Shown piece after piece: positions 28,315 to 47,775 of a stretch of 48,428 bases of DNA. Made by a program: the position numbers and the translations under genes. Every line of letters starts with the position of its first letter. The stretch's first letter is position 1. Origin of the DNA: a virus. Taxonomy: Duplodnaviria; Heunggongvirae; Uroviricota; Caudoviricetes. Under the pieces are notes generated by a model. It ran no database searches and had not been told where the DNA came from. It worked only from the letters and a program-made list of their open reading frames with translations. Where the stretch lies: IMG/VR virus record IMGVR_UViG_3300045988_145381. The stretch is one strand, 5' to 3'.

Positions 28315-28425
28315 TCTCCGGTTTAACCAGGGCGGGTATCGCTCGGTTTCGGGTATAACCTTAGGAAATTTTTTCCCACCTGTAAAGCACTTTTTATATA
28401 AATCTATAATTATATAATTCTATGA
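28315..28425 (-). promoter_or_regulatory. conserved promoter-leader element, copy 1
   Basis: Near-identical to 34827..34940 and 44347..44457; gene-direction read gives TTTACA-17bp-TAAGGT, a -10-like TATACC, a conserved leader and ggaga Shine-Dalgarno; AT-rich palindrome upstream. Confidence 0.6.
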
Positions 28426-29391: not shown

Positions 29392-29560
29392 ATATTTGAT
29401 CTGTTTGTCTGGTGTGGCGCCGCGCACGAAAATCCCAGCCAATAAATTCAGGATTTTTGGGCGCGGCGGCATATCAGACAAACATGGTTGATGCGTGCGC
29501 CCATAAGAAAAGCGCATAGAATGTTGTAACTATATATTTATATAATTATAGAAATATATA

Positions 29561-33684: not shown

Positions 33685-33761
33685 TGTCGAGGCGTCCTTA
33701 TACATTTATATAAATATATAATTCTATATACAGCGGGAGACATCCCGCCGTATGCTTACTG

Positions 33762-34829: not shown

Positions 34830-34940
34830 CAGATTTCTCCGGTTTAACCAGGGCGGGTATCGCTCGGTTTCGGGTATAACCTTAGGAAATTTTTTCCCAC
34901 CTGTAAAGCACTTTTTATATAAATTATATAATTATATATT
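34827..34940 (-). promoter_or_regulatory. conserved promoter-leader element, copy 2
   Basis: Near-identical to copies 1 and 3; lies between the Q-like gene and the DUF3560-like gene. Confidence 0.6.
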
Positions 34941-38655: not shown

Positions 38656-38683
38656 CTGCAAGCGGGCTAACGCCCGCTTATAT

Positions 38684-38790
38684 GATTATAGATTTATATA
38701 ATTATATAAAACGCTTTTCATCCGCCAAAAAGTTGGTTATGCTTACCTCGTTCTATAAATATAGATTTATAGAATTATATAACCAAACAC
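38684..38790. repeat. AT-rich palindromic repeats upstream of parF-like gene (candidate centromere/operator)
   Basis: Perfect 16-bp palindrome ttatataattatataa at 38694..38709 and related tatagatttatagaattatataa at 38764..38786; a third copy at 39458..39490. Confidence 0.5.
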
Positions 38791-39459
38791 ATGGAGTCTC
38801 GACAAATGACTATCTCTGTAGGTATTTTCAACGGAAAAGGCGGCGTAACCAAATCAACAATTGCCCGTGCTTTAGCAGTTGCTTATGCAAAGGCTGGCTG
38901 GAATGTATGCCTGATCGATATGGATGTGCTTAACGGAACGGTAACGCGTTGGGTACAACGCAGAATGGCCAACAATATCGAACCAGCAATCGCGGCGCAG
39001 CCGTGCGGCACACCATCACAAGTCCAGAAAATCATCGAATCAGAAGTATACGACCTGGTTATCGTCGATGGCGGTGCCTACGCATCTGAATCAGTACCGA
39101 AGCTCTCTGAATTTCTGGATATGGTTATTTTGCCAACCAGATTCTCTACCGATGACCTGGAAACCACCGTTAACACTGCTCACGGCATCGTTAAAAAGGG
39201 TGTACCAATCAAGAAAATTTGCATGGTGTTTTCCGGCGCGGCTGAAAACGAAGCTGACTATATTGAAGCCCAAGAGTACCTGGCTAATACGCCATACTTT
39301 GTTGTTGATAAGTACATTCCCCACAAGCCAGCTCTGAGCAAAGCTCAGGATAAGGGCTTAAGCCTCATTGAGTGCTCATACGTTGCGCCACGCAAAAAGG
39401 CAGACGACGTTATTCAGGGGATTATCAACCAGCTTGAGGCTCTGACTACTGCCGCGTAA
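38791..39459 (+). CDS. ParA/ParF-type partition ATPase
   Basis: 222-aa ORF with deviant Walker A (GIFNGKGGVTKST); start may be the second Met at 38806. Confidence 0.7.
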   Translation: MESRQMTISVGIFNGKGGVTKSTIARALAVAYAKAGWNVCLIDMDVLNGTVTRWVQRRMANNIEPAIAAQPCGTPSQVQKIIESEVYDLVIVDGGAYASESVPKLSEFLDMVILPTRFSTDDLETTVNTAHGIVKKGVPIKKICMVFSGAAENEADYIEAQEYLANTPYFVVDKYIPHKPALSKAQDKGLSLIECSYVAPRKKADDVIQGIINQLEALTTAA

Positions 39460-39502
39460 TATATAATTATAGTTTTATAGATTTATATAAGAGGGGATAC
39501 AC

Positions 39503-43958: not shown

Positions 43959-44339
43959 TTACTTAACGAGGAATAAAAATGGTTTATTGTTCGGCGGTGT
44001 AATCGGGGCTGGCTCGCTTTTGCTCATGCGATCAGTGTACCAGGCCAACTCCTTGTCAAAGTAAGCCTGATTAAAATAGGCCATGAATGTAGTTTCAAAT
44101 CCATAACGACCGCTAATACGCAGCATCTGATTGCCGTTCTCTGTTTCCAGATATACCTGGGCACGTTCCTGATTCTCCTTCAGCCAGGTTAAAGCCTCAT
44201 CGCATGAGGACACACGATACTCATCATCGTAGCAGTCATCGATGCGGCTTGAGGAAGAACGGCAAATCACGCCAACAGAACCAGCCAGGATAGTTTGAAT
44301 TTTAAGGAAAGCGTTTTTGCGGATTTTAATCATGCTCAT
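43959..44339 (-). CDS. hypothetical protein
   Basis: 126-aa ORF directly downstream of promoter-leader copy 3. Confidence 0.45.
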   Translation of the reverse strand: MSMIKIRKNAFLKIQTILAGSVGVICRSSSSRIDDCYDDEYRVSSCDEALTWLKENQERAQVYLETENGNQMLRISGRYGFETTFMAYFNQAYFDKELAWYTDRMSKSEPAPITPPNNKPFLFLVK

Positions 44340-44346
44340 CGGGTTA

Positions 44347-44457
44347 TCTCCGGTTTAACCAGGGCGGGTATCGCTCGGTTTCGGGTATAACCTTAGGAAT
44401 TTTTTTCCCACCTGTAAAGCACTTTTTATATAAATATATAATTATATAATTCTATGA
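44347..44457 (-). promoter_or_regulatory. conserved promoter-leader element, copy 3
   Basis: Near-identical to copies 1 and 2, including the upstream ttatataattctatga motif. Confidence 0.6.
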
Positions 44458-44502
44458 GCACAAAAAAGCCCCTTTGCAACAGGGGCTTATCATTCGTTCT
44501 GA

Positions 44503-44802
44503 TCAGATGTTAAACGCTATTCGTTTTCCTGTGGGAAGCTCAACATCCAGGCTTAATTTGCCTCCCATAGCTTCAACGTAACGCTTTAATGTCGCCAGCT
44601 TTAAATCATTTCCGCGCTGCTCCAGCTTTGTTACTGCTGGCTGGCTTATACCCATCGCCTCAGCAACCTGTTTTTGTGATAACTGGAGTTCTTCACGCAT
44701 CATCTGCAAGCCGACCTCAAGAATCATCTCATCTGCCATTTCTTTAATTCGCGCCTGGCTTTCCGGTGAACGGCTGGCAATCGCCTCATCTAATGTTCTC
44801 AT
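44503..44802 (-). CDS. higA: HigA-like HTH antitoxin
   Basis: 99-aa ORF with XRE-type HTH (...LSQKQVAEAMGISQPAVTKLEQ...), overlapping the stop of the upstream toxin-like gene. Confidence 0.65.
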   Translation of the reverse strand: MRTLDEAIASRSPESQARIKEMADEMILEVGLQMMREELQLSQKQVAEAMGISQPAVTKLEQRGNDLKLATLKRYVEAMGGKLSLDVELPTGKRIAFNI

Positions 44803-45155
44803 TACTTGCTCTCCAGTGTGTTCAGATGTGCTGCAAACTCATCCTCAGCTATACGCACCAGTTTTTCATAAAACCGCTTATCGTTACTTTTGTCTCCTGC
44901 ACAAAGAACGATGGCCCGGCGAATCGGATCGAACGCATAAAAGGCTCTTATCGGACGGCCAGAAAACTGAACGCGAAGCTCTTTCATATTTTTGTACCGA
45001 GAACCTTTTACGGTATCGGCATATGGCCTGGGTAACTCAGGTCCGTAAACCTGTAGCTTTTTCAAATCAGCCAAAACCTTTTCCTGAAGAGCGTCTTCTT
45101 GCTCATTTAGCCAGTCGTCAAATCGCTGGCTAAAAAGTACCGTCCACATGCTCAA
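44802..45155 (-). CDS. higB: HigB/RelE-family toxin-like protein
   Basis: 117-aa ORF upstream of and coupled to the HTH antitoxin (toxin-first order); two TATAAC-N6-GTTATA-type palindromes at 45159..45204. Confidence 0.6.
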   Translation of the reverse strand: MSMWTVLFSQRFDDWLNEQEDALQEKVLADLKKLQVYGPELPRPYADTVKGSRYKNMKELRVQFSGRPIRAFYAFDPIRRAIVLCAGDKSNDKRFYEKLVRIAEDEFAAHLNTLESK

Positions 45156-45393
45156 TCCTATAACCTGTAGTTTATATCACTAACTATATAACCTGTGAGT
45201 TATAATTTCAAGAAAAACGGGGCTATTTAACATAATGGACGTTATCGGCACCACCGGATCACCGTTCATTGTCGGATCTAAAAAATCCGCTCAAAAGATC
45301 ATGTTTTCCTGGGCGTTTTCCACCGTTTTTTATGTTGCTTATTTGTTAATGAAATCTCGTTTTCAGTTTCGCCTCATTTTCGACGCGAAAGCC

Positions 45394-45684
45394 CTATTTT
45401 TGTGACTTTACTCCTGGCATATGGACTTCCCAGCGACGAATCCCCATAGCTGCGCAAAAATCAGCCACATAATTCAATCCCGCCCATTCGCGGATACCAC
45501 CACGGGCTTTTTCAATGAAAACGGCAATCCCTTTTTTATTGAGAGCAAAAAGCCGCCAGCTTTTTGTCACTTCGTCCTGGGTAGCCACAACACAAGTGAA
45601 AGCTCCCATGCGATACAGGTCCAAGAACTCTTTGCGTGTTTTGCGTACAAGTTCCATAACAAACCTCATATTTGCATGTTTCAA
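45394..45684 (-). CDS. hypothetical protein
   Basis: 96-aa ORF coupled to the upstream HTH gene. Confidence 0.4.
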   Translation of the reverse strand: MKHANMRFVMELVRKTRKEFLDLYRMGAFTCVVATQDEVTKSWRLFALNKKGIAVFIEKARGGIREWAGLNYVADFCAAMGIRRWEVHMPGVKSQK

Positions 45685-46611: not shown

Positions 46612-47451
46612 TTAATGTTGGAGTGATTTCCAGGTCTTTCTTAGCCTGTTATAACGCTGCTCAACGAGGGAGCGTAAATATGCAAGGTCAGCACCAGGAT
46701 ACATGCCATCAGCAAATTCCTGGCTAACCTCTCTAGTGATTTGATGGCGAAGTTCGGCCTCTCCCTTTTCCTGAACAAGACGCGCAGCTCTCTCCGCTGC
46801 TTTCTGTTTTGCCTTTATCTCTCTGGCCGTCTTCCTCTGACGCCATACATTCTCCATCTGCTCCTGAATAACAATACGCTTATAATCAGCCTCCGTTATC
46901 GCTTTTTTAAGCCGTTCGCTATTCTTCGCATTGAAGTAATTAAGTTTCTGGCTAACCGCACGTCTCCATGCTTGTTCAGTAATACCAACTGTTTCCAGCA
47001 GTTGATCACGAATCTCGATTTTCGCTGGCCAATACTGTTTATTCACCCGATCCCAGCGACGTTCATAATCAATAAAACCTAACTCTTTCAGTTGCGACAA
47101 CGCCCTTGTACAGCGCGTTATAGACTTGTTCCCAGCTTCGGATACGGTAGACAGGCCGCAAAAATCAGCCAACGCCTCAGCACTGGCCAGAACCCGCTTA
47201 GAAATGATGTTTACATGGTGCAAAATCGCAGCAATCACAGCATTAATCGCCCGACGACGATGCTCGTTTATCCGGCGTTTCCGCTCTGACGGTTGATTAA
47301 CGTAGAACGCAACCTCACACGTAAGATCACGACCATTAATGCGCTGTAAAGCATCAGATAACACCAGCGGCAGCTTGTGCGTATGGTGCTTTGGAGGCTG
47401 GAACTCCGGCGACAAATTACAAACGTAAGCTGAACGTAGAGACGGCATTGG
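46612..47451 (-). CDS. repA: IncFII-type replication initiator RepA
   Basis: ORF 46612..47604 trimmed to MDRPMPSLRS...; strong resemblance to R100/R1 RepA1 as recalled (...KSITRCTRALSQLKELGFIDYE...). Confidence 0.75.
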   Translation of the reverse strand, partial: PMPSLRSAYVCNLSPEFQPPKHHTHKLPLVLSDALQRINGRDLTCEVAFYVNQPSERKRRINEHRRRAINAVIAAILHHVNIISKRVLASAEALADFCGLSTVSEAGNKSITRCTRALSQLKELGFIDYERRWDRVNKQYWPAKIEIRDQLLETVGITEQAWRRAVSQKLNYFNAKNSERLKKAITEADYKRIVIQEQMENVWRQRKTAREIKAKQKAAERAARLVQEKGEAELRHQITREVSQEFADGMYPGADLAYLRSLVEQRYNRLRKTWKSLQH

Positions 47452-47494
47452 TCTATCCATATGTTCGCTCTTGCGTCCACGGAAAACCAACGTA

Positions 47495-47576
47495 TAATGG
47501 GAGTTGTCGAGGCGCCCATGGTTAGTTGTTGGTTTTCCTTTCCGTGGATGTCGCAAGAAGCCCGCAGATTTATCTG
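47495..47576 (+). ncRNA. candidate antisense RNA to the repA leader (CopA-like)
   Basis: Plus-strand TTGCGT-16bp-TATAAT promoter at 47461..47488, long imperfect stem, terminator hairpin gcccgcagatttatctgcgggc plus ttttt at 47548..47576. Confidence 0.45.
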
Positions 47577-47775
47577 CGGGCTTTTTGTTTCCATATCTGG
47601 TCACTTTTCAACCAGACACCCACAATCATAACCACGTTACGTGGTTTTAAGAGAACTCTACCACAACACTTTCGGTCATGCACGAAGTCTCTCACTGATC
47701 GAACGATAATCCACCAGTAAAAGGATCTAAATTGGATCTCGTTTTGCGAGCATCATACTACTGGCCTAACTCCAG

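Follow-up and report, generated by a model that had tools for sequence, protein, structure and literature searches.

The Gp49 family of toxins has been catalogued as acting by ribosome-dependent mRNA degradation and as being encoded in toxin-first order (PMC11980606). A plasmid-borne example, higBA2 of Acinetobacter baumannii pAB120, has been shown by experiment to encode an RNase, to be under repression by its own HigA, for which HigB acts as co-repressor, and to stabilise an unstable plasmid (PMC5906591). In Mycobacterium tuberculosis, HigA3 binds a 20-mer containing TATAACCT with a dissociation constant (Kd) of 11 nM and has been crystallised on that DNA, which derives from the higBA3 palindrome TATAACCTAGAGGTTATA, situated at the -10 box (PMC7340258). 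Moreover, several palindromes in the promoter of Streptococcus pneumoniae HigA are bound by HigA itself (PMC7984235). Here we describe a HigB/HigA-type module with two upstream palindromes on a 48,428-nt stretch of viral DNA (Caudoviricetes; IMG/VR record IMGVR_UViG_3300045988_145381); this whole stretch is referred to below as the window.

Our comparative analysis makes it likely that the module is a self-repressed, bicistronic type II toxin-antitoxin operon of the Gp49-HigB/HigA kind, with an RNase as toxin and a role in maintenance. For this particular copy we infer toxicity, RNase chemistry, neutralisation, lability of the antitoxin and the maintenance phenotype. The module is typical of a known kind, and public annotation already flags a toxin-antitoxin system. 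Mildly new are an apparent code that links antitoxin residues to operator bases and the occurrence of one specificity class across the phage-plasmid, the plague plasmid pPCP1 and M. tuberculosis HigA3.

Probable palindromic operators and their covariation with the antitoxin

The module is encoded on the minus strand, and two palindromes lie immediately upstream of it at 45159..45204, exactly where the first-pass annotation had seen them. On the plus strand they read TATAACCTGTAGTTTATA (45159-45176) and TATAACCTGTGAGTTATA (45187-45204). On the coding strand, the distal site O1 (45187..45204; TATAACTCACAGGTTATA) consists of TATAACTC-AC-AGGTTATA and the proximal site O2 (45159..45176; TATAAACTACAGGTTATA) of TATAAACT-AC-AGGTTATA, with a centre-to-centre distance of 28 bp. 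Both palindromes are imperfect, the 8-nt arms around their 2-nt centres matching at 7/8 and 6/8 positions, and the outer arms of O1 are perfect (6+6). A promoter scan placed a -35 box TTGAAA at 45206..45211 and a -10 box TATAGT at 45183..45188, both on the minus strand, with 10/12 matches and a 17-nt spacer. O1 occupies this spacer and runs on into the -10 box by 2 nt, while O2 begins near the expected transcription start, spans about +1 to +18 of the transcript and reaches the Shine-Dalgarno sequence of the toxin gene. When the whole 48-kb window was searched, blind to the motif, for pairs of similar 18-bp palindromes separated by 20-35 bp, O1/O2 was the sole such pair; across 200 dinucleotide shuffles the mean was 0.005 (a pair in 1/200).

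The palindromes accompany the cassette into unrelated replicons, including pPCP1, IncK2/Z and MOBC plasmids and chromosomes. In plasmid copies with 75% identity, each of the two sites has been altered in its two arms at once, TATAAC...GTTATA having become TATAAG...CTTATA. Scanning reference genomes recovered 80 loci from Enterobacterales, Pasteurellaceae, Acinetobacter and others, with toxins 52-98% identical to that of the window, and an antitoxin homologue lies directly downstream of the toxin in 80/80 of them. Most of these loci carry 18-bp palindromes with a TATA-type outer core; a typical locus has a pair spaced by 25-29 bp, with one site near -55 and the other near -28 relative to the start codon. 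The position of O1 at about -55 is conserved. The -10 box of many homologues is supplied by the right arm of O1 (..CTTATAAT), and hexamers resembling TTGAAA, TTGACA or TTGCAT stand directly 5′ of the distal palindrome in many loci. The TTGAAA -35 box is unchanged across an alignment of five replicons.

Furthermore, the operators covary with the recognition helix of the antitoxin. This comparison covered 78 loci, and since the loci are related the following counts are not to be taken as probabilities. Residue 59 pairs with base 6 of the half-site: glutamine occurs with G in 117/140 half-sites, lysine with C in 32/36 and alanine with A in 35/40. Residue 56 pairs with base 5, where alanine occurs with A in 55/55 loci and serine or threonine with G in 21/22. 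Both the Lys-C and the Ala-A pairing are found in two distinct half-site classes, and among antitoxins of about 90% identity a difference at residue 59 coincides exactly with a difference between the operators. A comparison with the published M. tuberculosis sequences (PMC7340258) showed that the half-sites of the higBA3 palindrome are the TATAACCT and AGGTTATA of the window; O2 and the higBA3 palindrome have the same right arm, AGGTTATA. Because the sites are conserved with the cassette and in homologous loci, track the antitoxin recognition helix and share their half-site with the HigA3-bound DNA, we conclude from sequence comparison that the two palindromes are very probably operators of the antitoxin of their own operon. 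The autoregulatory arrangement proposed in the first-pass annotation is supported by palindromes that overlap the promoter core and transcription start and that covary with the recognition helix. The operator architecture and the half-site are conserved from Enterobacterales to M. tuberculosis.

The natural variants suggest a residue-to-base recognition code, which might supply orthogonal small repressors. In its most general form, which we put forward tentatively and hold to be somewhat less probable than its failure, the operator specificity of the HigA family would follow a simple, swappable code in which residue 59 sets base 6 (lysine or arginine C, glutamine G or T, alanine A) and residue 56 sets base 5 (alanine A, serine or threonine G), giving at least five insulated classes. 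The window, pPCP1 and HigA3 would share the K59/TATAAC class, and the modules of a resident pPCP1 and of an incoming phage-plasmid could cross-repress or cross-neutralise each other. The phage-plasmids isolated on Yersinia pestis (L002) share their specificity class with pPCP1, and cross-talk between a resident and an incoming module is conceivable. The pPCP1 cassette itself (L003, 1491-2222) has a proximal operator that is half-degenerate. On the Escherichia coli plasmid pFHI_NMBU_11_03 (L087, 1545-2702), a HigA-like helix-turn-helix (HTH) protein is encoded behind the same upstream block as in the window, without a Gp49 toxin ahead of it. This protein is 49% identical to the window antitoxin, has arginine at position 59 and operators of the TATAGT/TATAAC type, and its gene is followed by those for a DUF5397 protein and a Cas2/VapD-like protein; it appears to be an antitoxin-operator unit paired with a different putative toxin.

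The remaining parts of the locus form a compact operon that runs on the minus strand from the promoter through toxin and antitoxin genes to a terminator, from 45211 down to 44458. The toxin gene (44802..45149, minus strand) encodes a Gp49-type HigB of 115 aa and is preceded by a Shine-Dalgarno sequence AGGA (45156..45159, minus strand), read from the sequence 6 nt 5′ of the ATG at 45149. This ATG is almost certainly the start codon, because of the AGGA 6 nt upstream, because all homologues begin with MW and because RefSeq annotates 115 aa. A TTG start at 45155, which gives a 117-aa toxin (44802-45155), was rejected: it leaves no gap to the Shine-Dalgarno sequence, and the homologues all start at MW codons. 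The antitoxin gene (44503..44802, minus strand; 99 aa, HigA-type XRE HTH) has its own Shine-Dalgarno sequence, GGAG (44811..44814, minus strand; likewise read from the sequence), located in the 3′-terminal part of the toxin gene, 8 nt 5′ of the ATG. The TAA of the toxin gene and the ATG of the antitoxin gene overlap by one base (TAATG). Both open reading frames lie where the first-pass annotation had described a toxin-first pair with overlapping stop and start codons, in an order kept in all homologous loci. A terminator scan found an intrinsic terminator at 44458..44488 (minus strand), 15 nt past the antitoxin stop codon, with an 8-bp stem containing 5 G-C pairs followed by a T-run. The extent originally given for the unit, 44503-45210, includes the genes and palindromes but falls short at both ends, as the -35 box reaches 45211 and the tail of the terminator lies near 44458.

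No second promoter-like site was found by the promoter scan on either strand of 44300-45500, which leaves an internal antitoxin promoter unsupported. Rfam gave no RNA family match at the operon locus, and the hairpin in the 5′ leader is weak (-6.3 kcal/mol). A small divergent open reading frame at 45235-45405 (plus strand) was rejected as a gene; it contains a stop codon in phage vB_YpM_41, and its other changes are mostly non-synonymous. Upstream of the operon promoter lies a non-coding block of about 200 bp (window 45201-45402; L087:2501-2702; L004:2195-2394; L003:104-223), which is 88% conserved on unrelated plasmids carrying different cargo. A 120-bp part of this block is also found 5′ of pla in pPCP1.

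Toxin and antitoxin

The toxin matches the Pfam family Gp49 (PF05973), to which M. tuberculosis HigB1-3, Tad and A. baumannii HigB2 belong, with an E-value of 5.7e-23 and 81.2 bits against a gathering cut-off of 23.9, over profile positions 1-89 of 90. This was the only family at E <= 0.01 in the Pfam search, in which PF06296, PF05015, PF09907 and PF05016 gave no match. The toxin also matches PHROG 3445, 'toxin' (E 2e-33), and belongs to a large family with 2,385 clusters (50% identity) at E <= 1e-3. An AlphaFold2 model with a predicted local distance difference test score (pLDDT) of 82.7 has two N-terminal helices, a four-stranded sheet (strands 44-46, 55-62, 65-74 and 79-86) and a long C-terminal helix (91-113), and such a helix is common to Gp49-like toxins (PMC9098466). 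A Foldseek search with this model returned, at probability 1.0, RelE, S. pneumoniae HigB, M. tuberculosis HigB1, Vibrio cholerae HigB2 and YoeB. The query-normalised template-modelling (TM) scores were 0.73 for S. pneumoniae HigB, 0.67-0.68 for M. tuberculosis HigB1 and up to 0.68 for V. cholerae HigB2, and the single ParE-labelled structure in the list ranked 38th. The toxin is linked to the RelE and HigB structures by its predicted fold only, which we take to be the RelE/BECR fold. Of the earlier description as a 117-aa RelE/HigB-like toxin, the RelE fold is supported by AlphaFold2 and Foldseek, and the length has to be corrected to 115 aa. "HigB-like" holds for the Gp49-type HigBs (M. tuberculosis HigB1-3 and A. 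baumannii HigB2) but not for the classical HigBs of Proteus vulgaris and E. coli.

Five residues of the toxin, E57, R59, R68, K87 and K91, do not vary among relatives of at least 59% identity and hardly vary when relatives of as little as 35% identity are included. In a study of ribosome-bound HigB-TAC (M. tuberculosis HigB1), E66, R68, R77, K95 and K99 were among the residues of the catalytic pocket (PMC9098466). The spacing of the two sets is nearly the same, with E57-x-R59-(8)-R68-(18)-K87-(3)-K91 in the toxin and E66-x-R68-(8)-R77-(17)-K95-(3)-K99 in HigB-TAC. An hhalign profile comparison with E. coli RelE was weak (E 0.039) and serves as a hint at the register only. From these similarities, the toxin is a putative ribosome-dependent mRNA endonuclease.

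The antitoxin (44503-44802, minus strand) was correctly recognised as a 99-aa XRE HTH protein. It matches HTH_3 in Pfam (E 3.9e-10), with the helix-turn-helix at residues 32-83, and PHROG 2339 over its full length (E 6e-31). Its best sequence matches in the PDB, and its closest solved relatives, are M. tuberculosis HigA3 (6LTY, E 4.8e-5), HigA2 (7EWC) and S. pneumoniae HigA (6AF3). The recognition helix spans S53-Q62, including K59, and the pattern ..SQ..V(S/T)KLE is common to the antitoxin and HigA3. The alignment to HigA3 and HigA2 extends through GGKLSLDVE, the C-terminal strand region that forms a dimerising beta-lid in HigA2 and HigA3; two C-terminal strands are also predicted in the antitoxin, from a poor model (pLDDT 62). 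The ratio of non-synonymous to synonymous substitution rates (dN/dS) is 0.05-0.12 for the antitoxin and, where it can be estimated, 0.03-0.09 for the toxin, with 0.55 in one near-identical comparison (L006) at a dS of 0.013. For both genes, dS is saturated in distant pairs while dN is still 0.05-0.26. These rates indicate that both genes are under purifying selection.

Taken together, these features suggest a scheme in which a sigma-70 promoter would drive the 115-aa RelE-fold toxin and the translationally coupled 99-aa antitoxin up to the intrinsic terminator. Antitoxin dimers, alone or bound to toxin, would occupy the two 18-bp palindromes with the half-site TATAAC(CT). Since O1 lies in the -35/-10 spacer and O2 over the transcription start, we propose that RNA polymerase would be excluded and that the operon would thereby repress itself. 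Free toxin would most likely enter the ribosomal A site and cut mRNA by means of E57, R59, R68, K87 and K91, and the antitoxin would neutralise it by direct binding. Cells that lose the prophage-plasmid could then undergo post-segregational arrest or killing.

Replicon, distribution and possible roles

The window encodes structural genes of the myovirus type, a Mu-like invertible tail-fibre segment, a cI-like repressor and a Rha protein, together with an IncFII-type RepA (46612-47604, minus strand) and ParA (38791-39459). The combination of structural genes with RepA, ParA and a repressor therefore identifies the replicon as a phage-plasmid, with the module in its replication and maintenance region, about 1.5 kb from the IncFII-type repA. 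Over the operon region the window is 100% identical to a 50-kb E. coli plasmid; it is 99% identical to numerous E. coli plasmids, which are non-mobilizable and 47-50 kb long, and to the Yersinia phages vB_YpM_39, 41 and 44, which were isolated on Y. pestis EV76. The module is found in virtually all PLSDB records that contain this repA region, and in 100 of 5,426 complete E. coli genomes, where 103 of the 104 copies are on plasmids. E. coli ATCC 25922 has the element on a 94-kb record with two module copies, possibly a plasmid dimer.

Outside the phage-plasmids, a cassette of about 725 bp, comprising the genes and promoter (approximately 44513-45238), is 95% identical in Y. pestis pPCP1, 96% identical in an IncK2/Z plasmid beside colicin genes and 75% identical in MOBC conjugative plasmids. 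The same cassette ties a widely distributed family of 48-kb E. coli phage-plasmids, with a representative in the reference strain ATCC 25922, to the plague plasmid, and its distribution shows movement among phages, small plasmids and chromosomes. The pPCP1 copy, YPPCP1.08c-09c, is co-expressed in microarray data (r = 0.97) and behaves as one transcription unit; the function of both genes is listed there as unknown (PMC2231364). A Y. pestis toxin variant that looks frameshifted (P0010) does not represent the reference pPCP1 sequence, in which the gene is intact, and the pseudolysogenic phage HQ103 is an unrelated 32-kb phage. A 9.6-kb scaffold of the Bacillota species Amphibacillus jilinensis (scaffold15, L007) carries a toxin and antitoxin that are score-identical to the pPCP1 copy and is most likely a pPCP1-like contamination of the assembly.

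The addiction or plasmid-type maintenance suggested in the first-pass annotation is plausible from this context. We regard maintenance of the prophage-plasmid as the most likely role, because the module is located among the replication and partition functions of a low-copy phage-plasmid, because almost all relatives have retained it, and because plasmid-borne relatives stabilise plasmids, as in the case of A. baumannii pAB120 (PMC5906591). The same molecular system might instead have been selected for anti-phage defence or superinfection exclusion through abortive infection, or for protection of the prophage-plasmid in competition, which we consider possible but rather unlikely. Such a role would suit a phage-carried module, with virions of 99%-identical genomes having been isolated on Y. 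pestis, and the many chromosomal homologues, for which plasmid addiction is irrelevant. Moreover, PHROGs places the toxin in the category 'moron, auxiliary metabolic gene and host takeover', the candidate defence protein NsnC contains a Gp49-like domain (PADLOC E 6e-7), and toxins of the RelE/ParE superfamily are widely proposed to serve in defence (PMC11980606). However, PADLOC did not match the module to any complete known defence system, its neighbours are rep and par functions and not a defence cluster, and small plasmids that are not phages, pPCP1 among them, carry it as well; one role need not exclude the other. Clearly less probable is an attenuated or non-toxic toxin, the pair then functioning mainly as a transcription-factor cassette under its own control or as an "anti-addiction" copy able to neutralise related modules present in the same cell. 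The strong purifying selection on the toxin and the conservation of its proposed catalytic residues speak against such a loss of activity, as does the tight double-operator repression with translational coupling, which is expected for a dangerous product. In its favour, two M. tuberculosis members of this Pfam family, HigB2 and HigB3, showed no toxicity on expression (PMC9098466), and the presence of the K59/TATAAC class on both pPCP1 and the phage-plasmids infecting Y. pestis would make cross-neutralisation possible.

Two further explanations concern single parts of the system. The RefSeq name, merely "RelE/ParE family toxin", and the fold shared by both groups would also fit a ParE-like gyrase poison in place of an mRNA endonuclease. 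This is highly improbable given that the Pfam ParE family (PF05016) is absent at E <= 0.01 while Gp49 is found, that the structural neighbours are RelE, HigB, HigB2 and YoeB with the sole ParE-labelled entry far down the list, and that the conserved E/R/R/K/K set fits the catalytic residues of an RNase in a family listed for ribosome-dependent mRNA degradation (PMC11980606). We attach hardly any weight to the view that the palindromes are chance features of an AT-rich promoter or sites for another regulator of the phage-plasmid. They are short, AT-rich and imperfect, and the window as a whole is enriched in relaxed 18-bp palindromes (188 compared to 114 +/- 11 in dinucleotide shuffles), but a comparable pair arose in one of the 200 shuffles only. 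Furthermore, chance sites would hardly travel with the cassette into other plasmids and chromosomes, change in both arms together and in correlation with the antitoxin recognition helix, and share their half-site with HigA3-bound DNA.

Some points count against the reading of the module as a self-repressed maintenance operon with an RNase toxin. Apart from the co-expression of the pPCP1 genes, we found no experiment on this module or on >90%-identical copies in the searchable literature. In the M. tuberculosis study, an oligonucleotide with the full palindrome gave no shift with HigA3 in electrophoretic mobility shift assays, and only a fragment with a half-site plus the centre was shifted (PMC7340258). 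The toxin had no sequence-level match to solved structures when searched as a single sequence or as profiles of 25 and 40 sequences; therefore, its catalytic correspondence rests on motif spacing and not on structural superposition. The AlphaFold2 model of the antitoxin, built on a shallow alignment, is poor. Finally, sequence cannot separate a maintenance from a defence role, and both may coexist.

Two other observations concern the phage-plasmid outside the operon. A 57-nt AT-rich element (core TATATAATTATATATTTATATAA plus CACCTGTAAAGCAC) occurs at 44401-44457, 28369-28425 and 34890-34938 with 98% identity and in the same orientation, each copy upstream of minus-strand genes, and weaker AT-rich relatives are found at 29512-29560, 33694-33728, 38676-38782 and 39460-39491. 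This element has the appearance of a promoter or repressor-binding site repeated across the phage-plasmid; a scan for the sigma-70 consensus gave no match in it. Antisense to the 5′ end of repA, 47475-47590 (plus strand) has a sub-threshold Rfam match to Thr_leader (34.6 bits against a gathering threshold of 55, E 1e-3), which probably reflects the stem-loops of an IncFII-type antisense or leader control region.

Comparison with known systems

The plasmid prophage P1 carries phd-doc, a type II toxin-antitoxin pair that penalises loss of the plasmid; its proteins are unrelated to those described here and its antitoxin gene comes first, and the analogy is functional only. V. cholerae HigBA2 and the classical HigBA systems of P. 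vulgaris Rts1 and E. coli K-12 have the same reverse, toxin-first gene order as the module, a ribosome-dependent RNase with a RelE fold, an HTH antitoxin and two promoter operators (PMC11006873, PMC12266136). However, V. cholerae HigB2 (PF06296), P. vulgaris HigB (PF05015) and E. coli HigB (PF09907) belong to other Pfam families, so that the likeness to the window toxin is at the level of the fold only, and the antitoxins of these systems dimerise differently (PMC8420761). The name 'HigB2' on the phage record is an automatic one and does not imply membership in the Vibrio family.

Among the closest full-length structural matches are M. tuberculosis HigB1, the toxin of a toxin-antitoxin-chaperone (TAC) system (7NBU, 7AWK), and S. 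pneumoniae HigBA (6AF3, 6AF4), with query-normalised TM scores of 0.67-0.73. Both toxins share with our model the long C-terminal helix and the E-x-R...R...K pattern, without a match at the sequence level. TAC requires a SecB-like chaperone, whereas none is encoded beside the module of the window. The pAB120 HigBA2 pair resembles the window in being plasmid-borne and toxin-first, with a Gp49-type HigB and an XRE HigA. Acinetobacter loci with 55-59% identity to the window toxin are among the homologues; they differ from the window in having a single palindrome, of the class TATAGA/TCTATA, and alanine at residue 59.

M. tuberculosis HigBA3 (Rv3182/Rv3183; 6LTY, 6LTZ) is likewise toxin-first, with a toxin of the Gp49 family and an XRE HTH antitoxin followed by a C-terminal strand region. 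It differs from the window in several respects, as its proteins are only distantly similar, it belongs to another phylum and is chromosomal, one palindrome has been described compared to two here, and HigB3 was non-toxic in the hosts tested (PMC9098466). The recognition helices of HigA3 and the window antitoxin have the same lysine (VSKLE against VTKLE), and the HigBA3 operator at the -10 box, TATAACCT-AG-AGGTTATA, has half-sites identical to those of the window (PMC7340258).

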